Source: an uncultured Woeseiaceae bacterium
GTDB taxonomy: Bacteria; Pseudomonadota; Gammaproteobacteria; Steroidobacterales; Woeseiaceae
Direction: 5' to 3'
Length of the DNA stretch: 64,000 nucleotides
NCBI GenBank assembly: GCA_945788625.1
Contig: CALZMQ010000022.1
Location: 30,007-94,006, forward strand
Shown: in pieces, positions 8,782 through 26,000 of the stretch
Layout of the letters: the number at the start of each line of letters is the position of its first letter
Numbering within the stretch: the first letter of the stretch is position 1
Translations under genes and position numbers: made by a program
The notes under the pieces: generated by a model
Seen by the model: only the letters and a program-made list of their open reading frames with translations
The model's database searches: none
What the model was told of the DNA's origin: nothing

Positions 8782-9927
8782 TTAGAGGCTCAGATTCAGG
8801 CTCTTCACAACCTCCACGGGGACATAATTGCTGCCAGCGGGGAGGTTATTCTCGATCGCGTACTTCTGTGCTGCCGCAAGCGTTTGACCGCCGATGATGC
8901 CGTCCAGGCCGGCCTTGTAGTAACCCTCGTCGGCGAGTGCCTTCTGCAGGGCCAGGACGTTGTCGCGCGTCATGTTGACTTCGCACATCACCTGGCGCCA
9001 CTCCATGCGCTCGTCGCTGGTCTTGTCGGTGCGGGTTACGGTCTGGTATTCGGCTGGAATGACAGAGCGTTGCTCGTTCGCGGGGGACACCAGTTTCGTC
9101 ACGGAAACCGTGTCGTACTTCGCCGGAATGACGACCTCGCGAGCTGTAGCCGGTTGCTTGACGACCGTCCTTGTGACCGTCTTGTACTCGGCAGGGATCT
9201 CGATGCTCTTCGTGTGTGCGGCTTCGACCAGCACGCGCTTCTCGATCGTCTTGTAACTTGCCGGCACTTCGACCAGGCACATGATCTCACCCGTGTCAGT
9301 GGTCGACTGTGACAGGACGGTCGCAGACTGCATCGCCGCCGGGCCCTTCTTCCAGGCGGTGTGAGCCGGCTTGTCGAGGACGCGCTCCGTTACCGTTTCA
9401 TAGACCGCCGGGACTTCGACGATTTTCTTCGATGCCGGCTTGACCAGAACCCGTTCTTCGACCTCACCGTATACGGCGGGGACGACTTCCAGCTTCGTGG
9501 AGGCTTCCTTCACCAGCACGGTCTCTTCGCCCATCTCGTAACGCGCGGGGATGATCTCGATACGTTCCGAGGCATCGCGGGTCATTACCTGCTCTGAAAC
9601 CGTCTGGTAGGTGGCCGGAATCAGTACCCGTGCGTAGCACTGGCCGGGCTTGGGATTCGGCGGAAACAGGCTCGCGTCGGCGGGCATCGAACGCGACGTT
9701 GAGTTGCTGTCGCTGATACGCGCCTGGGCATTGGCCAGGTCCCGATCCTTTGAAGCCAGCGCGGATTCGAGCTCGCTGATTCGTTGCTTCGACGCCTGCA
9801 ATTCGGCCGCCGTGATCGAGCTGCTGCCCGAGTCCATGCTTGAAGATTCTGCTGCCAGTGTAGAACAGCCGCTGGCGATGGCGGCACCCGCCACGATTGC
9901 CAGCGTCCTGACGTAAATTCTGTACAT
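8782..9927 (-). CDS. Lipoprotein with repeated (V/I)PAxYxTV modules and a C-terminal peptidoglycan-binding domain
   Basis: Lipobox AIASGC after MYRIYVRTLAIVAGA, with an AGGAG Shine-Dalgarno. About 8 copies of an approximately 19-aa repeat. C-terminal PG_binding_1-like motif LQKALADEGYYKAGLDGIIGGQTLAAAQKY. Confidence 0.8.
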   Translation of the reverse strand: MYRIYVRTLAIVAGAAIASGCSTLAAESSSMDSGSSSITAAELQASKQRISELESALASKDRDLANAQARISDSNSTSRSMPADASLFPPNPKPGQCYARVLIPATYQTVSEQVMTRDASERIEIIPARYEMGEETVLVKEASTKLEVVPAVYGEVEERVLVKPASKKIVEVPAVYETVTERVLDKPAHTAWKKGPAAMQSATVLSQSTTDTGEIMCLVEVPASYKTIEKRVLVEAAHTKSIEIPAEYKTVTRTVVKQPATAREVVIPAKYDTVSVTKLVSPANEQRSVIPAEYQTVTRTDKTSDERMEWRQVMCEVNMTRDNVLALQKALADEGYYKAGLDGIIGGQTLAAAQKYAIENNLPAGSNYVPVEVVKSLNLSL

Positions 9928-10026
9928 ACCCCTAACTCCTGTGTCTGACTCTTGTGAAAGTCGGCGGAGTATAGGTACTGGACCGTGCGACTCGTCGCAC
10001 TGTAACAATCGTTAACAATCGCTCCG

Positions 10027-10632: not shown

Positions 10633-11040
10633 ATGTCAAAGAGTATTGAACAAATCGAAGGTATCGGCCCGAAATTCGGCGCCACACTGCGTAAAGCCGG
10701 CATACGAACGGTGGAGAGCCTTCTGGACGCGGCCGCCGACAAGAAATCACGCGCCGCACTGGCCGCGCGTACCGAAATCAGCGAGGCGCGGCTTCTGAAG
10801 TGCGTCAACATGGCGGACCTGTTCCGTATCAACGGCGTGGCCAGCCAGTACGCACAGCTGCTGGAATGCGCCGGCGTCGACACGGTCAAGGAACTGAAGC
10901 ACCGCAATGCGGAGAACCTCGCAACGAAGATGGCTGAAGTGAACGATGCCAAGAACCTGGTGCGTCGTCCGCCGTCGAGCACGGTGGTCAGTGACTGGGT
11001 CGCCCAGGCCAAGAAGTTGCCGGCAAAGGTTTCCCACTAG
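10633..11040 (+). CDS. DUF4332-like helix-hairpin-helix protein
   Basis: Two HhH-like segments (IEGIGPKFGATLRKAGIRTVESLL and INGVASQYAQLLECAGVDTVKEL), as I recall for DUF4332. Confidence 0.7.
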   Translation: MSKSIEQIEGIGPKFGATLRKAGIRTVESLLDAAADKKSRAALAARTEISEARLLKCVNMADLFRINGVASQYAQLLECAGVDTVKELKHRNAENLATKMAEVNDAKNLVRRPPSSTVVSDWVAQAKKLPAKVSH

Positions 11041-11114: not shown

Positions 11115-12581
11115 GTGAGCATCGATTCGGTAATGGAATCACTTCAGGGAACGCTTAGCAGCACACTACCAAGCCTGCTCGCTGCCGTCGGCATCCTGGT
11201 CGTCGGCTGGCTGGTTGCCGTAGTGCTGCGCGCAGGTACGCGGCGTCTCCTGGGCCTGGCGAATCTCAACGAGCGTATAGCAAGCAGTACCGATAGCGAC
11301 ATCAACGCCGAGTCGTGGGGCGCTTCCGGCGTCTTCTGGATAGTCATGTTCCTCGTCCTCATCGCGTTCTTCAACGTGTTGGACCTGCAAATCGTTTCCG
11401 AGCCGCTGCGCGCGCTGGTGACCAAGGTGTTCGAGTTCGGTCCGAGTTTGTTCGCCGGTGCCATCCTGGCATTGATCGCCTGGATACTGGCCAACGTCGT
11501 CCGAACATTGACTACAAGCGCGCTCTCCAAAACCACGATCGACGAAAAGGTCAGCAAGGCTGCGGAGATGAGGCCCGTCAGCGACAGCATTGGCGACGTC
11601 CTTTACTGGCTGATCATGCTCATGTTCCTGCCGGCTATTCTCGGTACGCTGAAAATGGAGGGCTTGCTCGTGCCCGTCCAGGGCATGGTCGACAAGATAT
11701 TGGCGATGCTGCCCAACATCCTCGCGGCTGGCGTCATCGGTCTCATAGGCTGGTTCGTGGCAGGCATACTGCGGGACCTCGTGCAAAACCTGCTGCAAAT
11801 CGTGGGTTTCGATCGCCTTGGCGAAAAGGCAGGACTGACGGGTAACGTCAGCCTGTCGCAACTGAGCGGCCTGCTCGTCTTCATATTCGTTTTCGTTCCC
11901 GCGCTCGTTGCAGCTTTGAACACATTACAGATCGAGGCGATTTCCGGACCCGCAACGGAAATGCTGGGCGCCTTCATGGCCGCCATTCCGGACATCTTCG
12001 CCGCCGTCATCATCTTGTCGATTTCATTCGTGCTGGCGCGGTTCGTGTCGGGCCTGATATCGAGGATGCTGGATGGACTCGGCGCGAATTCACTACCCGA
12101 AAAACTCGGCCTTGCCGCGGGGCACAAGGACGGTTTTTACCTCTCGAGCTTCGTCGGCAAGGTGGTCAGCGTATTCATCATGTTGTTTGCGAGCGTCGAG
12201 GCCGCGAATCAACTCGGTTTTGGCCAGGTGTCGGAAATCGTGTCCACGTTGATCGAATTTGCTGGCCAGGTACTCCTCGGCGGCGTCATTCTGACAGCGG
12301 GTTTCTGGATTGCCGGGCTGGCCCAGGCGGCCGTCGTTAAAGTCAGCGGCGAGTCGGCGACGGCGCTTGCCGGCATACTGCGAGCTGCGATTCTCGGGCT
12401 CGTGCTTGCAATGGGCTTGCGCGCCATGGGCATCGCCGACGATATCGTGAACCTGGCATTCGGGCTGGTACTCGGTGCGATTGCCGTCGCGTTCGCGCTG
12501 TCATTCGGGCTCGGAGGCCGCGAGGCGGCCGGCAGGCAAATGGAGCACTGGCTCGCTCGCCTCAGGAATGACGATGACTGA
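11115..12581 (+). CDS. Multi-pass membrane protein of the conserved TM-helix-repeat (mechanosensitive-channel-related) type
   Basis: 488 aa with repeated glycine-rich TM hairpins and internal repeats. GTG start 7 nt after AGGAG. Confidence 0.7.
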   Translation: MSIDSVMESLQGTLSSTLPSLLAAVGILVVGWLVAVVLRAGTRRLLGLANLNERIASSTDSDINAESWGASGVFWIVMFLVLIAFFNVLDLQIVSEPLRALVTKVFEFGPSLFAGAILALIAWILANVVRTLTTSALSKTTIDEKVSKAAEMRPVSDSIGDVLYWLIMLMFLPAILGTLKMEGLLVPVQGMVDKILAMLPNILAAGVIGLIGWFVAGILRDLVQNLLQIVGFDRLGEKAGLTGNVSLSQLSGLLVFIFVFVPALVAALNTLQIEAISGPATEMLGAFMAAIPDIFAAVIILSISFVLARFVSGLISRMLDGLGANSLPEKLGLAAGHKDGFYLSSFVGKVVSVFIMLFASVEAANQLGFGQVSEIVSTLIEFAGQVLLGGVILTAGFWIAGLAQAAVVKVSGESATALAGILRAAILGLVLAMGLRAMGIADDIVNLAFGLVLGAIAVAFALSFGLGGREAAGRQMEHWLARLRNDDD

Positions 12582-12651
12582 TTACGCCGAACCGGCCGGC
12601 AACACTGTCAAGAACACACCGCCAATGGGAAGGTAAACTATCGCGAATGGG

Positions 12652-12972
12652 ATGGAGTTGGGCAAAGTGAACGACAAGCAAGGCAAGCCAATCGAGATCG
12701 AAGATCCGTTCGCCCGCCGACTGATGGGCAAGTACCTCGGTCACCGCAAGGATGACGTCGACAAGCTGAGGACCGCACTGGCCGCCTCGGACTTCGACAC
12801 GATCCGGATCACAGGGCACAACCTGTACGGTTCCGGCGCCGCCTACGGACTCGACGATATTTCGTGGCTCGGCGCGAGCATAGAGCGTGCTGCCGAGTCG
12901 AAAGACGTCCCCGATACCGAACGCCTGATCGGCGAACTGGAGTTGTTTCTGCGCAAGCTCAACGTCTATTAG
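12652..12972 (+). CDS. Hpt (histidine phosphotransfer) domain protein
   Basis: 106 aa, predicted helical, with ITGHNLYGSGAAYG matching the HxLKGSxxxxG phospho-His motif. Confidence 0.6.
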   Translation: MELGKVNDKQGKPIEIEDPFARRLMGKYLGHRKDDVDKLRTALAASDFDTIRITGHNLYGSGAAYGLDDISWLGASIERAAESKDVPDTERLIGELELFLRKLNVY

Positions 12973-13109
12973 GGCGGGTTACCCGGGCCGGAATTTGAAA
13001 TAATCTCCAATATTTTCCGGTCCTTGCCAGCGATATCGCTATAATCAGTAAAAAGCCGCCACCATGGGGCTGCCCGGCGATACCATTATTTCCCTGGACT
13101 GGAGCAACG

Positions 13110-13802
13110 TTGCGAGTAGCAATTCTTGAGGACGATCCCGATCAGGCGGAGATTACCGGACTTTGGCTGAGTCACGCGGAACACACGGTCGATAGTTTTG
13201 CGAACGCGACCGACTTCCTGCGCGCCGTGAAACGCGACAGCTTCGACTTGTACGTGCTCGACTGGATGCTTCCGGACCTGAGTGGAATCGAAGTACTCAA
13301 GAAGCTGCGCACGGAGATGGACGACTACACGCCGGTCGTAATTGCAACTGCGAAGGACGAAGAGCAGAGTATCGTACGAGGGCTCGAGGCGGGCGCCGAC
13401 GACTACATCGTGAAACCCATTCGGCAGGCCGAACTGGTGGCGCGAGTATCGGCGGTATTGAGACGGGCAACGGGCGGCAAACCGGATGACGAGGGACTGG
13501 ATGTCGCGCCGTACTCAGTGCACCTCGCGAACAAGACTGTAAGCCTGGGCGATGAAAAAATCGCCCTGACGAACAGGGAATTTGAACTGGCGCTGTTCTT
13601 TTTCCGCAACGCTGGAAAAATGGTATCAAGGGGCCACATTCTGCAGGCGATCTGGGGAATCGAGAATCGATCGGTATCGACACGAACGGTGGATACGCAT
13701 GTGAGCCGACTGCGAAAGAAGCTCAAGCTGTGCGAGGCAAACGGCTGGGTACTTTCGGCGATTTACCAGCACGGTTATCGTATTGAGCGCGTTGCCGCAT
13801 AA
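13110..13802 (+). CDS. OmpR/PhoB-family response regulator
   Basis: Receiver features (DLYVLDWMLPDLSG, K in DYIVKP) plus a winged-helix output (LTNREFELALFF...VDTHVSRLRKKL). TTG start after GGAG. Confidence 0.9.
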   Translation: MRVAILEDDPDQAEITGLWLSHAEHTVDSFANATDFLRAVKRDSFDLYVLDWMLPDLSGIEVLKKLRTEMDDYTPVVIATAKDEEQSIVRGLEAGADDYIVKPIRQAELVARVSAVLRRATGGKPDDEGLDVAPYSVHLANKTVSLGDEKIALTNREFELALFFFRNAGKMVSRGHILQAIWGIENRSVSTRTVDTHVSRLRKKLKLCEANGWVLSAIYQHGYRIERVAA

Positions 13803-13838
13803 GAGCGCCGCGGCGCCGGGAGAGAAAAGGTACATTTT

Positions 13839-14399
13839 ATGGCCAGAAAACAAACACAGAATCAATCCGGTTTGACCACAGATAACATGGACGGCAACGT
13901 CGACAAGATCCGCGAAATCCTTTTTGGCGGACAGATGCGCGACTACGAGCAACGCTTTGCGGATCTCGAGAAGCGGCTGTCGAGAAACATCGAGCTCATG
14001 TCGAGCAATCTCGAGAAAAAAGTGGAGCGCCTGAATACCTACGCAAAGCGAGAGATCGAGAAACTCTCCGTGCAGATCAAGGAAGAGCGCAAGGCACGCA
14101 GGGATGACGGCAAGCAGGGCTCCAAAGATCTCAAGGAACTCTCGCAACAGGTCGAGTCCTGGTGTGCGGAACTCGAAGAGCATATCGGTAGCGAATCACA
14201 CGACCTTCGCGGCATTCTGCAGGAGCAGAGTGAGGAGCTCTCAGGGATGATCCACGACACGCACGATCAGCTCAGCAAGACGATGGCCGCCGAAACGCGC
14301 AATCTCGCCGACGACAAACTGGCGAGAGACGACCTGGCCGCGTTGCTGACCGAGGTCGCCCTGCGCCTGAAAAAAGATTTCAAGCTGCCGGACGCCTGA
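13839..14399 (+). CDS. Coiled-coil hypothetical protein
   Basis: 186 aa, charged heptad-rich. The N-terminal motif KIREILFGG is shared with the next ORF (LKELLFGA). Confidence 0.6.
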   Translation: MARKQTQNQSGLTTDNMDGNVDKIREILFGGQMRDYEQRFADLEKRLSRNIELMSSNLEKKVERLNTYAKREIEKLSVQIKEERKARRDDGKQGSKDLKELSQQVESWCAELEEHIGSESHDLRGILQEQSEELSGMIHDTHDQLSKTMAAETRNLADDKLARDDLAALLTEVALRLKKDFKLPDA

Positions 14400-14423
14400 G
14401 ACAGCGCCTGAGGTGGCGTTATC

Positions 14424-16127
14424 ATGAACGATCTCGATCAGCTAAAAGAGCTGCTGTTTGGCGCTGAGAAACAGACTCTCGACACGATCTCGAAGCGCGT
14501 CGAACAACGCGAAGTGCGTACCGTAGACGTTGCCGATATCCTGCCCGAGGCCATTTATCAGAGCCACCGCAAGGACGGCGAGCTTGTCGAGTCGCTGACG
14601 CAGCCGGTGGGTGAATGCCTGCAGCAAGCCCTCCGTGACGATCCGCAGACTTATGGTGACGCGCTGTACCCGGTTATGGGTCCGGCGATTCGCAAGTCGA
14701 TCATGCACGCATTGCGCACGTTCGCCCAACAGATCAACGAGGCCGTCGAGCACAGCGTGAGTCCGAAAGGACTCCGGTGGCGCTGGCAGGCCATGCGCGC
14801 CGGTGTCCCCTTCGGCGAATTCGTACTGCAAAAAACGATGCGCTATCGCGTCGAACAGGCCTACCTGATCAGCCGGGAAAACGGATTGCTCGTCGGGCAC
14901 GTCCACCACGAGGCGTCGAAGATAAAGGACAGTGATGCCGTTTCCGCGATGTTCACGGCCATACAGGATTTCGTCAAAGAGTCGTTTTCGCCGGATCGCA
15001 CGGGGCGACTCGAATCCGCTGATATGGGTGACTTCACCTTGTGGGCGGTACACGGGCCGCATGCATTGCTGGTATGCGTCATACGCGGTGTACCGCCAAA
15101 GAGTCTGCGCGCTGACCTGAGCGCGATTCTCGAGCGTATTCACTTCCGTTACGGCGAGGCAATCAGGGAGTACAAGGGGGATACGTCCACCGTTCCGGAC
15201 GTCGAAATCGAACTGGGGCGTTGCCTGCGTTTCGAGGCGCGCCAGGAAAGCAGCGAAAAACGCAAGGGGCCGCCGGTACCGATCATTGTCCTGTTGCTCC
15301 TGTCAGTCGCTGCGGTTGCGTTTCTCGGCATCCGCAGCTGGCTGTATGCGCAACAACTCGAGCGGCTCGCCGAAGCGCTCGAGAGCACCCCGGGAATTCA
15401 CGTCTCGCAAATCGAGCGTAGCGGCGGCGACGTATCCGTGCGCGGCCTGAGGGATCCGCTCGCCATCGGTGTTGCGGATGTTGCGGCGAGCGTCGACGTG
15501 CCGGCGGATCGGCTTAGCGTTTTCATGCAGCCTTTTCAGTCCCTGCAACCCGAGATCGTGGCCCTGCGCGCGGCGCAGACGTTCGGTCAGCCGGGATCCG
15601 TTAAGTACGACGTCGCGGGCACAACCCTGCTCGTGACCGGTGACGCGCCGTGGTCGTGGCGACAGCGAATACAGTCCGGTTTCGTCAACCTGGCTGGCGT
15701 AGATGTGCTGGATTTGAGCGGCCTGACGTCCGGTGACCGGCAACGGTTCGTCGAGCGCGTCGAAAACATCGAGCAAAAGAAGTTCTACTACGCGGATGAC
15801 GTCGAATTCGCCCGGGGCAATGCGGATGCGTTACGCCAATACTCCGATGAGCTACGTGCGGTTGCCGACCAGGGGTCCGGTTACGGTTACGCAATAACCA
15901 TTACCTTGCAGGGGTCAGCCGATGCTGCCGGCACTTTGGCGGAAAACGAGGTACTGGCGCAGCGCCGCGCGACACATGCGGCAGGATTACTCGAATCCTA
16001 CGGACTCGACACGCAAATAGTTTCGCCACCGGCAGATTCTATCAAGGGCGGTCAGACCCGGGAGGACGCTGCCAGGCGGTACGTGCAGATCGACGTGCAG
16101 CTGCAGCTATTACCGGAATCGCCGTGA
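14424..16127 (+). CDS. Membrane protein: cytoplasmic Roadblock/LC7-like domain, one TM helix, periplasmic BON-like and OmpA-like domains
   Basis: VEQAYLISRENGLLVGHV...DSDAVSAMFTAIQDFV...GDFTLWAVHGPHALLVCVIRG fits the Roadblock/MglB pattern. The TM helix is PVPIIVLLLLSVAAVAFLGI. The C-terminus ITITLQGSADAAGTLAENEVLAQRRATHAAGLL is OmpA_C-like. Confidence 0.6.
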   Translation: MNDLDQLKELLFGAEKQTLDTISKRVEQREVRTVDVADILPEAIYQSHRKDGELVESLTQPVGECLQQALRDDPQTYGDALYPVMGPAIRKSIMHALRTFAQQINEAVEHSVSPKGLRWRWQAMRAGVPFGEFVLQKTMRYRVEQAYLISRENGLLVGHVHHEASKIKDSDAVSAMFTAIQDFVKESFSPDRTGRLESADMGDFTLWAVHGPHALLVCVIRGVPPKSLRADLSAILERIHFRYGEAIREYKGDTSTVPDVEIELGRCLRFEARQESSEKRKGPPVPIIVLLLLSVAAVAFLGIRSWLYAQQLERLAEALESTPGIHVSQIERSGGDVSVRGLRDPLAIGVADVAASVDVPADRLSVFMQPFQSLQPEIVALRAAQTFGQPGSVKYDVAGTTLLVTGDAPWSWRQRIQSGFVNLAGVDVLDLSGLTSGDRQRFVERVENIEQKKFYYADDVEFARGNADALRQYSDELRAVADQGSGYGYAITITLQGSADAAGTLAENEVLAQRRATHAAGLLESYGLDTQIVSPPADSIKGGQTREDAARRYVQIDVQLQLLPESP

Positions 16128-16648
16128 CGCCGGTCACTAGCAAAGTATGCGTCGTCGGCGATTTTGCCGTTGGCAAAACCAGCGTCGTCGAACGTTTTGT
16201 GAACAATCATTTTTCCGAGAAATACCTCACCACCGTCGGAGTCAAGATCGATACCAAGGAGATCGAGTCTGCGGGAACGGGCATAGCGCACAAGCTGGTA
16301 ATCTGGGACGTTGCGGGATCCGACAGGTTCGGCGATACCGAGTTCGCCTATCTTCGCGGCGCTAGCGGCTACATCTATGTCGCGGACGGCACGAGGCCTG
16401 CGACCCTGGGCGCGGTCGAAAACCTGCGCGAGCAAATTGCCGGGAAATACGGTCCTGCGCCGAGCGTACTGCTGGTCAACAAGCGCGATCTAACGTCCGA
16501 ATGGTGCATTAGCGACGAGCGTATCAGTGGTGTTTCCGGCGCATATGACGATCTGTACCGGACTAGCGCAAGAACCGGAGAGGATGTCGAACATGCACTG
16601 ACGCGCCTTGCCGGGCTTATCATAGACAACGATTTTCGCGGCGCGTAA
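16124..16648 (+). CDS. Ras/Rab-like small GTPase
   Basis: G1 GDFAVGKTS, G3 WDVAGSD, G4 NKRD, G5 SAR. GTGA overlap with the upstream gene and TAATG overlap with the downstream kinase. Confidence 0.85.
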   Translation: MTPVTSKVCVVGDFAVGKTSVVERFVNNHFSEKYLTTVGVKIDTKEIESAGTGIAHKLVIWDVAGSDRFGDTEFAYLRGASGYIYVADGTRPATLGAVENLREQIAGKYGPAPSVLLVNKRDLTSEWCISDERISGVSGAYDDLYRTSARTGEDVEHALTRLAGLIIDNDFRGA

Positions 16649-18198
16649 TGGAGCTGCCTGCGCCCGTCGTCGACTACCTGCAAAGCGAGTTCCTTTCGCA
16701 AACCAGGCCGTTCTGTTTCCTGATCGACGACAACTACCGACTCATTGAAAGCTGGGGCCGCAACGACTGGTGTGGCCTGACCGGACTCGAAACGGCCGTG
16801 GATATGCGCGAGCCGGCGCCGTTTCTCGTAGGTATTGATATAAGCGCGTTGCAACAGTTCGAATTCATTGAGACGTCCGGCCGGGCCGTGGTGAATGTGC
16901 ACGTGATTCCGGCAGATGGCCAGTGCTACATCGTATTGCTCGACGCACACAGGGACCATGCTTCGCTGCAGTCGAAACAGCAGTCGGTGAATGAGCTGCG
17001 ATTGATGCACGGCCGCCTGCACAAGCTGATCGAACGCCAGCGCGAACTCATCAGCGAGCTCATCGAGACACGGTCTGAGCTGGATCATCATCGCCGCGAC
17101 GCCGAGCGCATCAGTGCCAACAAGAGTCGATTCATCGCCATGATGTCGCACGAATTTCGCACGCCCCTCGCGTCCATCATCAACTATGCAACACTCGCCG
17201 GCGAAGAGCCGACAAGCAGCAACGACGTTCAGAAGAGCATCGAGACGATATCCCGCTCTGCGCGGCACCTGACGTCCATGGTCGAGGCCGTGCTCGACGA
17301 TGCAAGCCTCGATGCCGGCCAGGTGCGCCTGGTCGAAGCCGACTTCGAGATATACAGTCTTCTCGATGACGTAGCGGCAATGATGGCGCCGCTCGCTGCG
17401 GAAAAAGGACTGTCGTTCGCGACGCAGATCGACCCCGATGTACCCGAAGTCATTCACGCTGACGAGGTTCGCCTGCGCCAGGTGTTGATCAACCTGCTCG
17501 GCAATGCAGTGAAGTTCACGCTCGATGGGGGGGTGCGGTTGGTGGCCACCTACAACGATGGCCGGCTGGTGATAACGGTCAGCGACAGTGGGCCGGGCAT
17601 CAGCCTGGAAGACCAGGAGCGGGTATTCCAGGCGTTCGAGCGCGGCAGTCGCCAGGACGCGACCGGCGCAGGGCTTGGCCTCACGATTACGCTGCGCCTC
17701 GTCGAACTCATGCGCGGCGAGGTATCGCTGGACTCATTGCCGGGCGAGGGATGCACGGTCAGTGTTCACTTGCCCGTCCAGTCTGCGGCAGGCGATGCCG
17801 CCAGGAGCGCTCCGGTATTGCCGACACCCAGCAACGACACCATCGCGACGAAGGCTTTGAGCATCCTCGTCTGCGACGATGACGACGATATGATTGCACT
17901 GGTCGAGCATTACCTGCATCGCTCCGGATACGGGTTGATTACGAGCTCGGACAGTTCCGAGGCGATCGCGAAAACGCTCAAGTACGATCCCGACCTGGTA
18001 CTGATGGATTGCAACGTGCCGGGCGTCGGTGGTGTGGTCGCGGCAAGGGTCCTGCGTGAACGCGGTTATGCCAAGCCGATTGTTGCGCTGACGGCCTCGA
18101 AACTCAGCGACGAGGAAAAGGCCGAGTTTACGCACTTCTTTCGAAAACCGGCGCCGATGCAGCAGCTTCTTACCGAAATCAAGCGCCTGACCCACTAA
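16648..18198 (+). CDS. Hybrid sensor histidine kinase/response regulator with a cytoplasmic N-terminal sensor
   Basis: HisKA H-box MSHEFRTPL, HATPase N/G boxes (NLLGNAVKFT, DSGPGI, GAGLGL), and a C-terminal receiver (ILVCDDDDDM...LVLMDCNVPG). Confidence 0.9.
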   Translation: MELPAPVVDYLQSEFLSQTRPFCFLIDDNYRLIESWGRNDWCGLTGLETAVDMREPAPFLVGIDISALQQFEFIETSGRAVVNVHVIPADGQCYIVLLDAHRDHASLQSKQQSVNELRLMHGRLHKLIERQRELISELIETRSELDHHRRDAERISANKSRFIAMMSHEFRTPLASIINYATLAGEEPTSSNDVQKSIETISRSARHLTSMVEAVLDDASLDAGQVRLVEADFEIYSLLDDVAAMMAPLAAEKGLSFATQIDPDVPEVIHADEVRLRQVLINLLGNAVKFTLDGGVRLVATYNDGRLVITVSDSGPGISLEDQERVFQAFERGSRQDATGAGLGLTITLRLVELMRGEVSLDSLPGEGCTVSVHLPVQSAAGDAARSAPVLPTPSNDTIATKALSILVCDDDDDMIALVEHYLHRSGYGLITSSDSSEAIAKTLKYDPDLVLMDCNVPGVGGVVAARVLRERGYAKPIVALTASKLSDEEKAEFTHFFRKPAPMQQLLTEIKRLTH

Positions 18199-18314
18199 GG
18201 CAAATGTCAACGATTGTTGCAAAACGCGGATGCAGCTCGCGTAGCCGATAACATCCCCGACCGAATCACAATCAATCGGGGCCCTGAGCCTCGTGGTCCA
18301 ACAGGGGAATCAAC

Positions 18315-18734
18315 ATGTTAAACGAATTCAAGAAGTTTGCGATGCGCGGCAATGTCGTCGACATGGCTGTCGGTATCATTATCGGTGCAGCGTTCGGCAA
18401 GATAATCAGTTCTCTGGTCGCCGATGTCATCATGCCGCCCATCGGGCTGTTGATGGGCAAGGTCGATTTCAGCCAGTTGTTCATCAACCTCGGCGAGACG
18501 AAGTACGAGACGCTGGTCCTCGCCAAGGAAGCCGGTGCCGCGACCATCAACTATGGCGTGTTCCTGAACACGGTGCTCAATTTCCTGATCGTCGCTTTCG
18601 CCATTTTCATGGTCATCCGCGGCATGAACAAATTGAAGAAGAAGGAAGAGGAGAAACCGGCAGAGCCGGCAAAGCCGTCGGAAGAGGTTCAACTGCTCAC
18701 GGACATTCGCGACGCACTCAGTAACCGCGCTTAA
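18315..18734 (+). CDS. mscL: Large-conductance mechanosensitive channel
   Basis: [31 protein letters not shown] is the canonical MscL N-terminus. 139 aa. Confidence 0.95.
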
Positions 18735-18760
18735 CAAAACAGGGTTACGTTACGGAGATG

Positions 18761-18791
18761 TCGGGCGCTCTTCGCGGGGCGCCCGATTTTT
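18761..18791 (+). terminator. Rho-independent terminator after mscL
   Basis: tcgggcgc...gcgcccga stem followed by ttttt. Confidence 0.7.
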
Positions 18792-18830
18792 ACGTTTAGT
18801 GCAGGCGGTATTTGCGGTACCCTCACGCGC

Positions 18831-20864
18831 ATGTCCCGACTCTTGATACTACTGGCGGCAACGCTTGCGCCACACCCCGCTGCGGCCGACGATTCCGAAA
18901 TAGAGGAAGTGCTGGTGACGGCGACGCGCCGTGCGGTCAGCAGTGAAGAGGTATCGTCCGGACTTACGCTTGTCGACCGCGAGCGCGTGCAGGCGAATGA
19001 ACTGGTCACTGATGCGCTGGCCGGCGAGGTCGGCGTTTTTCTTCAGCAAACGACCCCGGGGCAGGGGGCCGCAATCATCCGCGGCCTGAAGGGGTCGGCG
19101 ATATTGCACCTCGTCGATGGGATGCGACTGAATAACGCGATATTCCGCAGCGCGCCGACGCAGTATCTCGCTTTGGTGCCGACGTCGGCCATTGAGCGCA
19201 TCGAAGTGCTACGCGGCACGTCGGCCTCCCTGTACGGCAACGATGCCGTTGGCGGCGTCGTGCAACTGGTCACGCGCGTTCCGAAGTTCGAGTCGCTCGA
19301 GACGGAGCTGCGGGGTGAGGCGCTGCTCGCATTCGACACTGCCGAGCTTGCGAAGACGTTTCGCACCAGCGTCGATTTCGGTAACAGCGAACTGGCCTCG
19401 TCCTTCAGCGCGGAGTACGTCCGGACAGGAAATCGCCGCACGGGTGGCGGTGAGCGCACCGGGCCGGGTGCTTACGAGTCCAGGGCGGCGCGCTACGTGC
19501 TGTCGGCGAATCCGCGGGACGATCGCTCGTGGCTGTTCGACGTTCAGTATCTCACGCAGCCGGAAACGCCACGTATCGACGAACTGGTGGCCGGTTTCGG
19601 GCAGACAGAACCGTCGTCTTCCGAATTCCTGTTTGCACCCAACCGCCGAATTTTCGCCCACGGCAAATACACGGTCACCGGTGGATTTGCAGGGCTCGAC
19701 TGGAACACCGACCTCGCATGGCAACGTATCGATGACGATCGCGTGACGCGCGATACAGGCGCCCCGAATCGGCGCCGCGAAGCGAACAGCAGCGATCTCT
19801 TTGGGCTAACTTTCAGCGGCTCGAGGATCAACGACGACGGCTCGTGGATTGTCGGGGCCGAGGTCTACTACGACAAGGTCAGGAGCGCGCGTATCGACGA
19901 GGACGTCACGACCGGCCTGCAGGTGGGCGTACCGTCGAGGTTTCCCGACGGCGCTACGGTCCGCCAGGCCGCGCTGTACGCGAACGTGTTGAAAGTTGTC
20001 GGTGACCGCCACCGGTTCAGCGGCGGACTTCGCATCAGCAACGACGAGGTCACGTTGCCGACGACGACAGTTTCGGGTGCGGCGACCATCGACGGCACCG
20101 ACCTGAGCGGCGACCTGGGGTGGATATTCGATGCCGGCCGCAATCTGCAACTCGTCGCAAATGCCGGGTTCGGATTCAGGGCACCGAACGTGTTCGACGT
20201 CGGAACGCTCGGAAACCGCCCGGGCAATCGTTTCAATATTCCGAATACGGCGCTCGACGCGGAACGTGTCGTGCAGGCGGATTTCGGTATTCGCCAACAC
20301 TCGGAGCGAGCCAAACTCGAGCTGATGGCGTACGCGTTGCGCTACACGGATCGCATCACGTCGATTGACACGGGTGTCGTAACGCCCGAAGGGCGCGATA
20401 TCGTGCAAAGCGTCAACGCCGCGGAGACGTCGATCCGCGGTGTCGAAGCGGGACTCGAGTATCGCTTCAGCGACACGGTCAATGCGCGGGTGGTCCTCAA
20501 CTACACGTGGGGCGAGCAGATTGTGTCAGGTGCCGACCCCGAGGCGGCCGGGCGTATACCGCCCCTCAACGGCGTGGTCGAAATTTCCTACGATGCTGGC
20601 GAGAAATTCCACATTGAGGGCTGGGTGCGATTCGCGGACGAACAAGATCGGCTCAGCGCGCGGGACGTCAGGGACGTGCGCATCGACCCCGCAGGAACCG
20701 ACGCATGGGCGTCAGTCGGTGCGCGCTTACACTGGCAGGGCGACGGGAACTGGCGGCTTGCCGCAGGTGTCGATAATCTTCTCGACGAACGTTATCGCGT
20801 CCATGGTTCTGGACTCGATGCGCCGGGGCGAAATCTGTCGTTCAGTGTGCACCGCTCGTGGTAG
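18831..20864 (+). CDS. TonB-dependent outer-membrane receptor
   Basis: Signal peptide, TonB box EEVLVTATR, plug domain motifs (IRGLKGS, RIEVLRG) and a C-terminal beta-barrel ending in W. Confidence 0.9.
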   Translation: MSRLLILLAATLAPHPAAADDSEIEEVLVTATRRAVSSEEVSSGLTLVDRERVQANELVTDALAGEVGVFLQQTTPGQGAAIIRGLKGSAILHLVDGMRLNNAIFRSAPTQYLALVPTSAIERIEVLRGTSASLYGNDAVGGVVQLVTRVPKFESLETELRGEALLAFDTAELAKTFRTSVDFGNSELASSFSAEYVRTGNRRTGGGERTGPGAYESRAARYVLSANPRDDRSWLFDVQYLTQPETPRIDELVAGFGQTEPSSSEFLFAPNRRIFAHGKYTVTGGFAGLDWNTDLAWQRIDDDRVTRDTGAPNRRREANSSDLFGLTFSGSRINDDGSWIVGAEVYYDKVRSARIDEDVTTGLQVGVPSRFPDGATVRQAALYANVLKVVGDRHRFSGGLRISNDEVTLPTTTVSGAATIDGTDLSGDLGWIFDAGRNLQLVANAGFGFRAPNVFDVGTLGNRPGNRFNIPNTALDAERVVQADFGIRQHSERAKLELMAYALRYTDRITSIDTGVVTPEGRDIVQSVNAAETSIRGVEAGLEYRFSDTVNARVVLNYTWGEQIVSGADPEAAGRIPPLNGVVEISYDAGEKFHIEGWVRFADEQDRLSARDVRDVRIDPAGTDAWASVGARLHWQGDGNWRLAAGVDNLLDERYRVHGSGLDAPGRNLSFSVHRSW

Positions 20865-23079: not shown

Positions 23080-26000
23080 TTAGCGAAGCCGGATCGGCGG
23101 CGACTCGAGGAACTGGCCGGTAATCGAACTCGTCACGCGGGCACAATACGTGCCTTTCGGCAACGGGTTACCGGCGCCATCGTCGGACTGCCAGTTGAAT
23201 TCCCAGGTATTATCGGACTTGACGCGGAAGCCGCTGCTGCCGGGGTCGCCGGCCATCGACAGCACTGTCGATCCATTGCCACAAGAGCGAATCTCCAGCA
23301 ATTGCTGGTCGTCGGAACTGTCGATGATAGCGCCGTTGGAGTCCAGCCAGCCCCAGGTCAGCGGGTTGCTGCTGCCCGCTTTGCTGTTGAGCTTCGTCGG
23401 TGTGATACCGACGCCGCCGGCGTAACCGACGCGCACTTCGAAGCTGGCGGTGCTGGCGTTGCCCGCGCTATCGGTCGCCGTGCAATCGACAGTTGTAGCG
23501 CCCGGCGGGAACAGGGTCCCGGATGCCGGCGTGCAGAGGAGATTCGGCGAAGGATCGATGTTGTCACTGACCGTGACATCGGAGCTGTAGTCGACGATCG
23601 CTCCTGACGTGTTTTGCAGGTCCGCGTCAAGGCCGCCGACCGGCACGTTGATCACCGGCGGCACAGTGTCCGTTACGGTAACCACGAAGCTCGCCGTCGC
23701 CGTGTTCCCCGAGTTGTCGGTTGCGGTGCACGTTACGCTCGTATCGCCTATCGCAAAGACCGTGCCCGAGGGTGGCAGGCAACTCACCGAAGGTGTGATA
23801 CCGCTGGTGTCCGAGGCCGCCGGCAACGCATAGCTCACAGTAGCGCCATTGATGCCCGTAGCAGGAACCGTCACGTCCGGCAGCGGCAAATCGATGAACT
23901 GTGGTGCGGTGACGTCATTGACCTGCACGACGTAACTTTGCGTCGTCATGTTGCCGGACGCGTCCGACACCGTGCAGTCGATCGTCGTTGCGCCGATTGG
24001 CAGCGGTTCACCCGAAATCTGCCCCGATTCCGCGGTGCAGCTAATCACAGGCGTCGGGTCGACATCGTCGACGTCGGCCGCCGCAAGTCCGCTCTCGAAA
24101 TCGAGACTGGCCGTACCGCTGACGGCATCCGCATCGACGTTGACCGGCTGTGACGGGAAACTCGTAAACAGCGGCGCCTGGTTGTCCCGTACGTCGACCA
24201 GTAAGTTGATCGTCGCGGTATTGCCCGCGTCATCCGTAGCGCTGCACATGATCGGGGCCGGGTTAGGGTTGGCAAGCGTAATGACGGGAATCGACTGGCC
24301 GGGTTCCATGCTCGTACAAATCGTTTCGCCGAGGCTGTCGGTACAGCTCACCGCGACAGGTTCGCCGTTGTCGCTGGCGCTCACGATACCCGCGCCGACC
24401 AGGTCCACGCAGGCGCCGCCGGGACGATTCGCCTCGATGGCCGGAACCGGAATCACGTCGCCGTCCGTCAGGCCGCCGAACTCGGGAGGCGCGGTGTCCA
24501 GCAGGATGCGCTCACGTTCATCGGCGAGATCCAGCTGGCAGAAGTAAGGATCGGTATTGCCCGGCGGCCTGTCCGTCTGGCTGCAGTTGGCGGCTTGCGA
24601 TGCCGACGTGAATCCACTGACCTGGATATTGTCGAGTTCTTCCTGCGTCCCGAACACACGACGTGTGAAGAACAGCGTCTGGCCAGGGACCGCGATCGCG
24701 CTGATTTCGCCGTCGAAAGGAGATTCGATCGTCGCAACGTCCAGCGCGTCGTCTGGATTGTCGACCATGGCAAGTACGCGCCGCTCGACCTGGGGCAGAT
24801 AATCGCAGTCGCGCGATGTCGGCGTGATGTACAGCGTCCATGCCACCAATTGCGAATCGACGTCGTCTGCTGCGGGACCGGAGAGAGCGATGTCCGCGTC
24901 GAACGACGTCGTGACATTGCCCGTGTTCCTGACGGCAAACGTGTAGTCGGTCCAGGTGACGCCTTCGCCTTCGGCAATGGTCGAGTTGATGAGTTCCGGA
25001 TTGATGAGTTCGGGGTTGATGAGTTCCGGATTGATCAACTCGGGATTGATGAGCTCGGGATTGATCAGTTCGGGGTTGATCAACTCCGGGTTGGCGAAGC
25101 CGAGATTGATGAGTTCCGGATTGATGAGTTCCGGATTGATCAGCTCGGGATTGATGAGTTCGGGGTTTATGAGCTCGGGATTGATGAGTTCGGGATTGAT
25201 CAATTCGGGGTTGATCAACTCCGGGTTGATGAGTTCGGGATTGTGCAGTTCGGCTTGCAGGACGTCATCCGTGCAGTCCGGATCGGCCGCGTCGCAGACG
25301 GGACTCTGGTAATTCGGCTGCTGCAGCACACCGGACGGACCCATGCCGCCCAGCGTGATGCTCGTCACGATGGGACAGGCGCCCAGGTAGTAATCGGCCG
25401 GGTTCGAATCGACGCAAGATTGCGTGAATACCTGCACGCCGGTCGTGGCATCGGGCAGATTGGAAACCAGGAATACCGTGCGTGCGAGCGCCGACTTCGC
25501 CGGCACGACCAGGTCTTCCGTTACGACCGGCGCGGGTATGTCGGGGCCGTCGAATGGCGGCACCGCCGGCAGCTGCCGGAACGACGCGCGGCCCAGCAAC
25601 GGGGCGTCGGCGGGCTGCCCGGTTATACGCATACGGTAGGCTTGTTCGACGTTGTTGGCGTTGCTCAGCGCGATTGGTATTGCACGTTGCAGATTCGTAA
25701 GTGGTTTGCTCGGTGTCGGTGCGGTCAGGCGCACCTGGTCCCGTATACGGGCGCCGTAGATATTCGCGTTGCGGGTGCGGTCCTGCGGGTCCAGCGGCGC
25801 ACACACGTCGGGCATGGGATCGAACGGATCTTCGATGCCTTCGGTCGTTCGAGTCGTGCCATCGAGTTCGGCGGGCGGCCCGCCGGCATCTGCCAGCATG
25901 GGTTTCTCGGGCCGTTCATGCGGTGGCAGCAATTTCGAAGGGACGGTTCTGCTTCCGGGTCCCGGCGTGTTCTCCGGAGGTGAGTAGGGGACTGTGTTTT

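Follow-up and report, generated by a model that had tools for sequence, protein, structure and literature searches.

Why should the gene of a Rab-like small GTPase lie between those of a membrane protein with predicted peptidoglycan-binding domains and of a hybrid histidine kinase, and has such an arrangement been described before? The question is raised by a locus at positions 12652-18198 of a 64,000-nucleotide stretch of DNA from an uncultured Woeseiaceae bacterium (contig CALZMQ010000022.1), which is referred to as the window; all positions follow the numbering of the window, and residue numbers are those of the proteins encoded in it. With high confidence, the locus can be assigned to the Group 1 Rup (Rup1) system as one of its gammaproteobacterial, Woeseiaceae-like representatives, in which the known gene core is extended by a separate Hpt phosphotransfer protein and an OmpR-type response regulator. 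Taken as a whole, the reading that combines this identity with a signalling path from the cell envelope to a phosphorelay appears moderately probable, and the full signalling mechanism within it is put forward as a tentative proposal.

The six-gene unit and its Rup1 identity

Six open reading frames (ORFs), all on the plus strand, make up the locus. To follow their conservation, genomes were scanned with each species represented once, which gave 180 loci with a relative of the 567-residue membrane protein, 80 of which were analysed. The related loci come mostly from Woeseiaceae and from other gammaproteobacterial metagenome-assembled genomes (MAGs), with identities of the membrane protein ranging from 87% down to 32%. 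The neighbour counts given below cover only those loci with enough flanking DNA, with the same gene order and strand being required.

12652..12972, + strand: stand-alone Hpt phosphotransfer protein, 106 residues, with the phospho-accepting residue His56 within the motif GHNLYGS (Pfam Hpt, E 4e-8; upstream in 64/71 related loci)
13110..13802, + strand: OmpR/PhoB-type response regulator, 230 residues, with receiver Asp51 and a winged-helix DNA-binding domain (Response_reg 7e-27, Trans_reg_C 2e-20; in 68/71 loci)
13839..14399, + strand: cytoplasmic coiled-coil protein, 186 residues, equivalent of DUFY (in 69/71 loci)
14424..16127, + strand: bitopic inner-membrane protein, 567 residues, equivalent of DUFX:OmpA
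16124..16648, + strand: Rup1 Ras/Rab-like small GTPase, 174 residues (Pfam Ras 4e-27, Roc 6e-23; in 62/63 loci)
16648..18198, + strand: hybrid histidine kinase, 516 residues (Pfam HisKA, HATPase_c, Response_reg; in 62/63 loci)

The four downstream genes are tightly packed, with gaps of 36 nucleotides between the regulator and the coiled-coil gene and of 24 nucleotides between the latter and the gene of the membrane protein, followed by two overlaps that can be read directly from the DNA. In the first (GTGA, 16124-16127), the GTG start of the GTPase at 16124 runs into the TGA stop of the membrane protein at 16125-16127, and in the second (TAATG, 16646-16650) the TAA stop of the GTPase (16646-16648) shares a base with the ATG start of the kinase (16648-16650). 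These overlaps are kept in the relatives, with 4 nucleotides shared by the membrane-protein and GTPase genes in 49 loci and with the GTPase and kinase genes sharing 1 nucleotide in 27 loci and 4 nucleotides in 15. The six genes thus form a conserved, translationally coupled unit, the arrangement of which is far beyond chance. The gene content, tight linkage and overlaps that the earlier note on this DNA had described from its letters are all borne out, as is the complete His-Asp phosphorelay proposed there, in that the kinase residues His168 and Asp454, His56 of the Hpt protein and Asp51 of the regulator could all be located; the co-conservation of the GTPase and the kinase, which that note had named as a check, holds in 62 of the 63 related loci. 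The best NCBIfam match of the regulator is PhoB-like, with a score under the equivalog cut-off.

The layout corresponds to the neighbourhood described for Group 1 Rup GTPases by Wuichet & Sogaard-Andersen (Genome Biol Evol 2014, PMC4316618), which consists of a coiled-coil DUFY protein, a DUFX protein with a transmembrane helix and an OmpA domain, a Ras-like GTPase without the Gln of the G3 motif, and an output enzyme, either a kinase or a GGDEF/EAL protein. In that work the N-terminal domain of the output enzyme was found to carry an invariant Gln, proposed by the authors to be supplied in trans to the GTPase, and the neighbourhood was likened to the actinobacterial conservon, with a conservon-like role in signalling being suggested (PMC4316618). 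DUFX was treated there as a domain of unknown function, and for the Rup GTPases no pairing with homologues of MglB was predicted, while the order “DUFY>DUFX:OmpA>Rup>” was listed in Table S2 for Alteromonas, Glaciecola, Marinomonas, Pseudoalteromonas, Nostoc, Anabaena, Mesorhizobium loti, Sorangium and others (PMC4316618). In the later literature, “Rup1” denotes a eubacterial group clustering with the Rab/Ras/Rho/Ran GTPases of eukaryotes and with the RasL GTPases of Asgard archaea.

Each part of this description has its counterpart in the window. The GTPase is a single-domain member of the Ras superfamily with eukaryote-like G1-G5 motifs and no Gln in G3; a gene for a cytoplasmic coiled-coil protein of 186 residues is adjacent; the membrane protein carries the DUFX domain, an inner-membrane helix and then a C-terminal OmpA-like domain; and the hybrid kinase downstream has an N-terminal region with the invariant Gln112. 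A tblastn search of plasmids with DUFX gave five records in cultured organisms, two of which are annotated and both show the layout, with ORF calls on two more in agreement. On a plasmid of Mesorhizobium sp. WSM1497 (DUFX identity 36%), a hypothetical protein is followed by an OmpA family protein, a “Rab family GTPase” and a class III adenylate/guanylate cyclase, and on a plasmid of Nostoc flagelliforme (DUFX identity 24%) the order is hypothetical protein, OmpA family protein, Rab family GTPase and hybrid kinase, with an Hpt domain fused to the last. The G3 motifs of these two GTPases read DLAGE and DIEGS, respectively. It has to be noted that the placement of the GTPase inside the published Rup1 clade is inferred from synteny, the loci of Mesorhizobium and Nostoc having this layout in common with the window.

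The architecture is therefore not new, although the earlier note had implied that it was, since the publication of 2014 (PMC4316618) already contains the four-gene core, the missing Gln of G3, the idea of a partner acting in trans and the comparison with the conservon. The remark in that note on an architecture apparently uncharacterised stands in one respect and falls in the other: the layout had been described computationally, and experimental work on any member of the Rup1 system was not found in the literature, where a search that included six locus tags of the 2014 table gave phylogenetic mentions only. What the present analysis adds to the 2014 description is the predicted longin/roadblock fold of DUFX, a BON-like module, a PAS-like N-terminus of the output enzyme with Q112 at its exit helix, and, for this gammaproteobacterial clade, an Hpt protein and an OmpR-type regulator that are encoded separately and are stable parts of the unit. 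These four additions were not found in the searchable literature, which is not proof of their being unpublished.

Genes of the mechanosensitive-channel type flank the operon on both sides in the lineage of the window. On the same strand, 116 nucleotides after the kinase, lies mscL (18315-18734, +; Pfam MscL 5e-49), and directly upstream of the Hpt gene a multi-pass membrane protein of 488 residues is encoded (11115-12581, +) with four PF05552 repeats (E 4e-46), a repeat described as “mechanosensitive ion channel, conserved TM helix”. Because the sole terminator-like hairpin of the plus strand in 12400-18900 stands 3' of mscL (18760-18787), mscL may be co-transcribed with the operon. Among the related loci, mscL is the immediate downstream neighbour in 28/60, all of them Woeseiaceae-like, and the upstream protein is kept in only 13/58, so that a functional link of the system to mechanosensitive channels was set aside as synteny of the lineage.

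Predicted architecture of the GTPase and its partners

The GTPase has all of its signature motifs intact and highly conserved: G1 is GDFAVGKT (residues 12-19), the Thr of G2 lies in YLTTVG (34-39), G3 is DVAGS (62-66; 16307-16321), G4 is NKRD (119-122) and G5 is TSAR (147-150). The Ser noted earlier at the equivalent of Ras Gln61 proves to be a family trait, this position being Ser, Thr or Ala in 67/67 homologues and never Gln. The P-loop, of the form G-x-F-x-V-G-K-T-S (GDFAVGKTS, residues 12-20, 16157-16183), places Phe14 at the position of Ras Gly12, and this Phe is invariant in the 67 gammaproteobacterial homologues and is also present in the GTPases of Mesorhizobium and Nostoc; judged by sequence, it may be a second hallmark of Rup1 beside the missing Gln. 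Substitutions of Gly12 in Ras are known to block GTPase-activating proteins (GAPs) that act through an arginine finger. A bulky residue at this position would therefore be incompatible with a GAP of that type, which fits a non-canonical, partner-dependent hydrolysis. The closest sequences in the PDB are Rab23 (1e-20), Rab7L1, a Rab of Thorarchaeota and Rab38, and the homologues are annotated by NCBI as “Rab family GTPase”, so that the protein falls with the Ras/Rab-like GTPases and not with the Era-like or translational GTPases that would have spoken against the earlier view of it. The sequence contains neither an intrinsic Arg finger of the MglA type nor a C-terminal cysteine for lipidation, and proximity to the membrane, in the absence of a lipid anchor, would have to come from a partner.

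The domains of the two proteins that flank the GTPase were delineated as follows.

14802..15173, + strand: longin/roadblock-type alpha-beta-alpha sandwich of the membrane protein, residues ~127-250, predicted cytoplasmic (AlphaFold2 and Foldseek)
15270..15338, + strand: single transmembrane helix, residues ~283-305 (hydrophobic run 287-303; AlphaFold2 helix 285-321)
15387..15764, + strand: periplasmic BON-like region, residues ~322-447 (AlphaFold2 confidence >90; Foldseek Rv0899, OsmY)
15771..16118, + strand: periplasmic OmpA-like domain, predicted to bind peptidoglycan, residues ~450-565 (Foldseek; invariant columns)
16648..16947, + strand: PAS-like N-terminal domain of the kinase, residues 1-100, proposed GTPase-receiving module (AlphaFold2 confidence 91; weak Foldseek matches)
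16978..16983, + strand: Q111-Q112 of the QQxxNE motif, in the first turns of the helix joining the PAS-like domain to the kinase core
17110..18186, + strand: kinase core HisKA (His168) and HATPase_c, followed by a C-terminal receiver (Asp454) (HisKA 1.6e-16, HATPase_c 1e-26, Response_reg 3e-14)

The AlphaFold2 model of the 567-residue protein, built from 74 homologues, has a mean predicted local distance difference test score (pLDDT) of 74, which exceeds 90 in the periplasmic part and is low in residues 1-125, a polar N-terminus modelled as helices of low confidence. Between residues ~127 and 250 a domain is predicted at pLDDT 55-82 with helices at 130-138, 170-187 and 227-248 and strands at 142-150, 156-161, 197-200, 204-210 and 214-221, corresponding to the order beta-beta-alpha-beta-beta-beta-alpha with a five-stranded antiparallel sheet packed between helices. 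When compared with the PDB by Foldseek, this domain finds the longin domain of Sec22b as its best match, with a template-modelling (TM) score of 0.80-0.81, a root-mean-square deviation of 2.5-2.7 Å over ~130 columns and a probability of 1.00; further matches are the sigma subunits of AP-1/AP-2, LAMTOR/Ragulator, Ego3, the C-terminal domains of Rag proteins, Mon1-Ccz1, VAMP7 and CopZ1, and MglB of Thermus reaches a TM score of 0.40. The probability of 1.00 applies likewise to the matches with AP sigma, LAMTOR, Ego3, MglB, Mon1-Ccz1, VAMP7 and CopZ1. The predicted domain thus belongs to the longin/roadblock class at the level of fold, closer to longin than to MglB, a placement that carries the moderate confidence of the model. 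The central helix of this domain (DSDAVSAMFTAIQDFV, residues 169-184; the region is also referred to as the DSDAVSAMFTAIQDF helix) is the best-conserved stretch of the whole protein. The DUFX domain family comprises 4228 clusters (50% identity) at E ≤ 1e-3 and 1429 at E ≤ 1e-30, and members of up to 1500 residues retain the C-terminal OmpA domain.

A single hydrophobic run (IIVLLLLSVAAVAFLGI, residues 287-303) is directly preceded by KRK, which points to an orientation with the N-terminus inside and the C-terminus outside and agrees with the one transmembrane helix given in the earlier note. Beyond it, residues 325-565 are modelled as three confident alpha/beta modules, for which Foldseek returns as its top match Rv0899/OmpATb, a protein with BON and OmpA-like domains (E 4.5e-5, 272 aligned columns), with OsmY and many domains of OmpA, Pal, YiaD and YfiB beneath; the proposal of BON-like and OmpA-like periplasmic domains is thereby supported. 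In Pfam, BON is marginal in distant homologues, and the OmpA family (PF00691) scores 18.5 bits on the window protein against a cut-off of 27.2 and 35-42 bits on distant homologues; in structure, the agreement with OmpA-like domains is strong. Residues D500, G503, N508 and R515 of the signature GxxDxxGxxxxNxxLxxxRA are invariant in the 74 homologues. A further motif in the N-terminal part, (D)ALYPVMGPAIRKSI at residues 80-93 (14661-14702), is kept in Woeseiaceae and has the counterparts DILYPVFLPAIRKSI in Mesorhizobium and DALYPIIGSTIAKYM in Nostoc; it sits in a region of the model with pLDDT <50 and may represent a segment for interaction or membrane association.

For the coiled-coil protein, Pfam gives solely apolipoprotein and coiled-coil noise and PADLOC noise of the coiled-coil type. 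Its conserved N-terminal motif IREILFGGQ (residues 24-32), which recurs in the DUFY proteins of Mesorhizobium and Nostoc, belongs to a stretch of ~30 residues common to the coiled-coil protein (20-53) and the membrane protein (3-36), with a pairwise BLASTP E of 0.011. The two versions read xDxIRExLFGxQ (IREILFGGQ) and xDxLKELLFGAE (LKELLFGAE), and both are found in the respective proteins of Mesorhizobium and Nostoc as well, a likeness in sequence that suggests a common binding partner or hetero-oligomerisation.

The first ~150 residues of the kinase are without any Pfam match. Their model (pLDDT 91) opens with a helix and two strands, passes through a long loop to three further strands and ends in a continuous helix at 101-149. 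As its weak Foldseek matches are all to PAS domains, the N-terminus is considered, with moderate confidence, to be PAS-like. At the beginning of the last helix, Q111 is present in 62/62 and Q112 in 60/62 of the gammaproteobacterial kinase homologues, and Q112 is the one residue invariant in 11/11 full-length output N-termini from gammaproteobacteria, alphaproteobacteria and cyanobacteria. Homologous N-terminal modules are found on the Mesorhizobium cyclase, on the Nostoc kinase and on a fragment annotated as an RsbU-type phosphatase, which also carries the QQxxNE motif. A profile search with this domain returned 25 proteins, mostly fragments, in kinase, cyclase and RsbU-like contexts, which does not amount to a full census. 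The output kinase of Nostoc flagelliforme is annotated as two overlapping genes of 176 and 622 residues (L082, 8204-10596), and that of Nostoc sp. UHCC 0926 is a single ORF of 822 residues (L084, 8200-10668); the split in the former is probably a frameshift or a real division of the proposed GTPase-receiving module from the kinase.

Proposed mechanism and competing explanations

In the mechanism proposed here, the BON-like and OmpA-like domains would hold the 567-residue protein between the inner membrane and peptidoglycan, enabling it to report the state of the envelope (wall attachment, spacing, or osmotic-mechanical stress) across the transmembrane helix to the predicted longin/roadblock-type domain. 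The coiled-coil protein, which has the N-terminal motif in common with the membrane protein, probably assembles with it. The cytoplasmic domain would dock the Rab-like GTPase and control its nucleotide state, most likely as an exchange or recruitment factor, and the GTPase, once GTP-bound, would bind the PAS-like domain at the N-terminus of the hybrid kinase, a soluble protein, and alter its autokinase activity. The phosphate is expected to travel from His168 to Asp454 of the kinase receiver, from there to His56 of the Hpt protein and finally to Asp51 of the OmpR-type regulator, resulting in a change in transcription. In the last step, Gln112 of the QQxxNE motif would complete the active site of the GTPase in trans, so that the effector would also be the off-switch; hydrolysis is proposed to need such a carboxamide because the GTPase is without a catalytic Gln and has Phe at the position of Ras Gly12. 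Both halves of the scheme have precedents, in that longin and roadblock dimers are recurrent platforms for guanine nucleotide exchange factors (GEFs) and GAPs of Rab, Rag and MglA GTPases, and in that a carboxamide is supplied in trans as Gln by the TBC RabGAPs and as Asn by Rap1GAP. The placement of the GTPase upstream of the enzyme is favoured by the constancy of the N-terminal module in front of variable outputs, namely a kinase, a class III cyclase, an RsbU-like protein and, according to PMC4316618, GGDEF/EAL proteins.

Several findings weigh against this reading. The confidence of the model of the longin-like domain is only moderate (pLDDT 55-82), and a Pfam scan gave no match of the 567-residue protein to Robl_LC7 (PF03259), a 38-sequence profile of the domain no match among all PDB sequences, and Pfam run on 38 diverse members at E ≤ 10 nothing significant, with isolated values of 0.038 for Robl_LC7, 0.057 for Intu_longin_1 and 0.24 for Fuz_longin_1. 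Membership in the Robl_LC7 or longin families at the level of sequence is rejected by these searches, and the resemblance in fold is kept; of the Roadblock/LC7 (MglB-type) segment suggested earlier, the roadblock/longin-type fold thus survives, and the sequence match and the closeness to MglB do not. The Foldseek matches of the kinase N-terminus, all to PAS domains (phytochrome PAS, BvgS, FlrB, PYP), are weak (E 2.6e-3 to 1e-2), and the helix that bears Q112 is probably part of the coiled coil of the kinase, so that the conservation of this residue could be structural. A mirror-tree analysis by distance-matrix and partial correlations, covering ten protein segments in 37 complete loci, gave no partner-specific signal, every segment being correlated through the shared phylogeny. 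In one locus of a Thiotrichaceae MAG (L079, 5199-8658), which is the single exception among the loci with room, the DUFY-DUFX pair is not adjacent to a GTPase or a kinase and has DUF945, DHODH, an ABC transporter and a methyltransferase as its neighbours, and in some genomes the pair of coiled-coil and DUFX:OmpA proteins may accordingly have a function or wiring of its own. For no member of the system did the literature yield data on interaction, GTPase activity, exchange or phosphotransfer. The specific claim that the cytoplasmic DUFX domain is a genuine longin/roadblock-type GEF/GAP platform of the Rup1 GTPase, which couples the state of the wall to the phosphorelay with a Gln of the kinase acting in trans, is regarded as somewhat short of probable.

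The direction of the signal is where the first of the alternatives departs. In a reverse, conservon-like wiring, the N-terminus of the kinase would sense a cytoplasmic cue and act as a GAP, the complex of membrane and coiled-coil proteins would be the effector of the GTPase in envelope remodelling or tethering, and the phosphorelay would form a parallel branch. This would match the conservon, in which the kinase acts on the complex of GTPase and roadblock protein, with the GTPase regarded as the probable output (PMC4316618); in addition, a PAS-like domain, if correctly modelled, could bind a ligand, and the DUFY-DUFX pair that occurs in L079 apart from the GTPase and kinase could have a function of its own. 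The change of outputs behind a constant N-terminal module is, however, the pattern of a receiver module, and the PAS-like core is poorly conserved with a reduced helical region, unlike a ligand pocket. The reverse wiring is therefore regarded as unlikely.

An alternative of similarly low probability concerns the chemistry rather than the direction, and supposes that the GTPase does not cycle, being instead a slow or non-hydrolysing, nucleotide-bound adaptor (a pseudo-switch or a sensor of the guanine-nucleotide pool) that bridges the membrane protein to the kinase. The Ser, Thr, Ala or Glu in place of the catalytic Gln, the bulky Phe found without exception where Ras has Gly12, which disfavours canonical GAP chemistry, and the lack of an intrinsic Arg finger like that of MglA would all be compatible with such an adaptor. 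It is harder to reconcile with G1-G5 motifs that are intact and highly conserved, and with a partner Gln conserved across phyla, which is the expected mark of a residue that acts catalytically in trans; moreover, the Rap and Rab precedents do cycle.

More remote is a polarity or localisation module, of the MglA/MglB kind or built like a Tol-Pal or Mot-type anchor, which would mark a site in the cell with the kinase as a passenger. The likeness in fold between the cytoplasmic domain and roadblock proteins, MglB among them, and the similarity of the OmpA-like anchor to the peptidoglycan tethers of the Pal and MotB type speak for it. Against it, the GTPase lies outside the MglA family, as judged by the Asp in G3 and by the absence of MglA among the matches listed (the best 60 in the PDB), the neighbouring genes include none for motility, Tol or stator proteins, and signalling enzymes are the partners in the tight coupling of translation; the chances of this reading are put as slim. 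A Zorya-type system of defence against phages, which would likewise combine a peptidoglycan-binding membrane anchor with a long coiled coil, is effectively refuted, since the weak PADLOC/NCBIfam matches of the coiled-coil protein and of the membrane-protein N-terminus to the tails of ZorA (E 6e-4 to 9e-3) are a low-scoring coiled-coil likeness only, no ZorB, ZorC, ZorD or other defence component was found by PADLOC, and the synteny is stably chromosomal across the whole family, beside housekeeping genes.

Should the envelope-to-phosphorelay path proposed above be true, it would constitute a previously untested route for the transfer of envelope information in Gram-negative bacteria and a prokaryotic precedent for the control of Rab-like switches by longin/roadblock domains. 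If the cytoplasmic domain is a genuine regulator of this type for the GTPase, bacteria would already own the pairing of a longin/roadblock platform with a Rab/Ras-like switch that organises membrane traffic and Rag signalling in eukaryotes, a meaningful link to the way in which GTPases are regulated there. It would also revise the 2014 view of Rup GTPases as being without an MglB-like partner and would open the ancestry of Rab/Ras regulation to study in a tractable bacterial system. The interest of the locus lies in that no bacterial GTPases cluster more tightly with Rab/Ras/Rho/Ran of eukaryotes and with Asgard RasL than the Rup1 proteins, of which it offers a compact case, complete in its relay and part of a widespread family, and in that the predicted folds (a longin/roadblock platform, a BON and OmpA-like anchor, and a PAS-like receiver with a candidate trans-Gln) turn a neighbourhood of domains of unknown function into testable steps. 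If the mechanism fails, what is left is one more ordinary case of a gene neighbourhood already catalogued.

Surroundings of the locus and comparison with known systems

Three further genes of the window deserve mention. On the minus strand, a protein of 408 residues (8782-10008) has no Pfam match at E ≤ 0.001 and a C-terminus (…LQKALADEGYYKAGLDGIIGGQTLAAAQKY…) that looks like a peptidoglycan-binding motif of the PG_binding_1 type, and between its gene and the operon a DUF4332/HhH protein is encoded on the plus strand (10633-11040, E 7e-40). A secreted-looking protein of 1562 residues (23080-27768, minus strand) contains ~18 tandem units of 15 nucleotides that encode NPELI, located at 24986-25253 (TRF: period 15, 17.9 copies, 78% matches).

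With regard to known systems, the predicted cytoplasmic domain shares its fold and its pairing with a Rab/Ras-like GTPase with the longin/roadblock regulators of eukaryotes (Mon1-Ccz1/Rab7, Ragulator-Rag, DENN, TRAPP) and with Sec22b, from which it differs in the lack of detectable sequence homology and in its fusion to a transmembrane helix and predicted peptidoglycan-binding domains. The periplasmic part has the BON-like and OmpA-like arrangement and the conserved Asp/Arg residues of putative peptidoglycan binding known from Rv0899/ArfA (OmpATb), OsmY and the C-termini of Pal and OmpA, which, however, are without a cytoplasmic signalling domain or a GTPase partner. The carboxamide that TBC RabGAPs and Rap1GAP supply to their Ras-like GTPases parallels the QQxxNE motif, with no homology in fold and with the catalytic role of Q112 being putative.

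The MglA/MglB pair of Myxococcus xanthus and Thermus thermophilus likewise has a small Ras-superfamily GTPase encoded beside a protein with a roadblock-type sandwich. MglA, however, has Thr in place of Asp in its G3 motif together with an intrinsic Arg finger, whereas the window GTPase has the canonical Asp62 (WDVAGS), is without the intrinsic Arg and Gln of MglA and is closest to the Rabs, which make up all of the matches listed (best 60) from the PDB, with none to MglA. Its partner is a membrane protein of 567 residues without a Robl_LC7 match, which fits longin better than MglB (TM score 0.80 vs 0.40), and the output is a phosphorelay instead of the pole-to-pole oscillation of MglA/MglB. 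With the actinobacterial conservon (CvnA-D/Mfp) the locus shares an operon that brings together a small GTPase, a histidine kinase, a protein of the roadblock type and one more conserved protein. CvnA, however, is a membrane kinase with a HAMP domain, an LPxR tail and no cognate regulator, and CvnD is a GTPase of MglA group 2, in contrast to the soluble PAS-like kinase, the Rab-like GTPase, the membrane anchor on the longin-like protein and the full Hpt/OmpR relay of the window locus, where Pfam also gave no match to CvnC (DUF742). The locus is thus neither an MglA/MglB pair nor a conservon, and the comparisons drawn with both in the earlier note are reasonable as analogies.

The Rup1 neighbourhood itself, which includes Gammaproteobacteria among its hosts, is matched gene by gene, from DUFY through DUFX-TM-OmpA and a GTPase without the Gln of G3 to an output enzyme with an invariant Gln in its N-terminus. 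What sets the window locus apart within that group is a lineage, the Woeseiaceae, that was not in the 2014 genome set, an output kinase of the hybrid type that is soluble, and the presence in the conserved unit (64-68 of 71 loci) of an Hpt protein and an OmpR-type regulator, each encoded separately.

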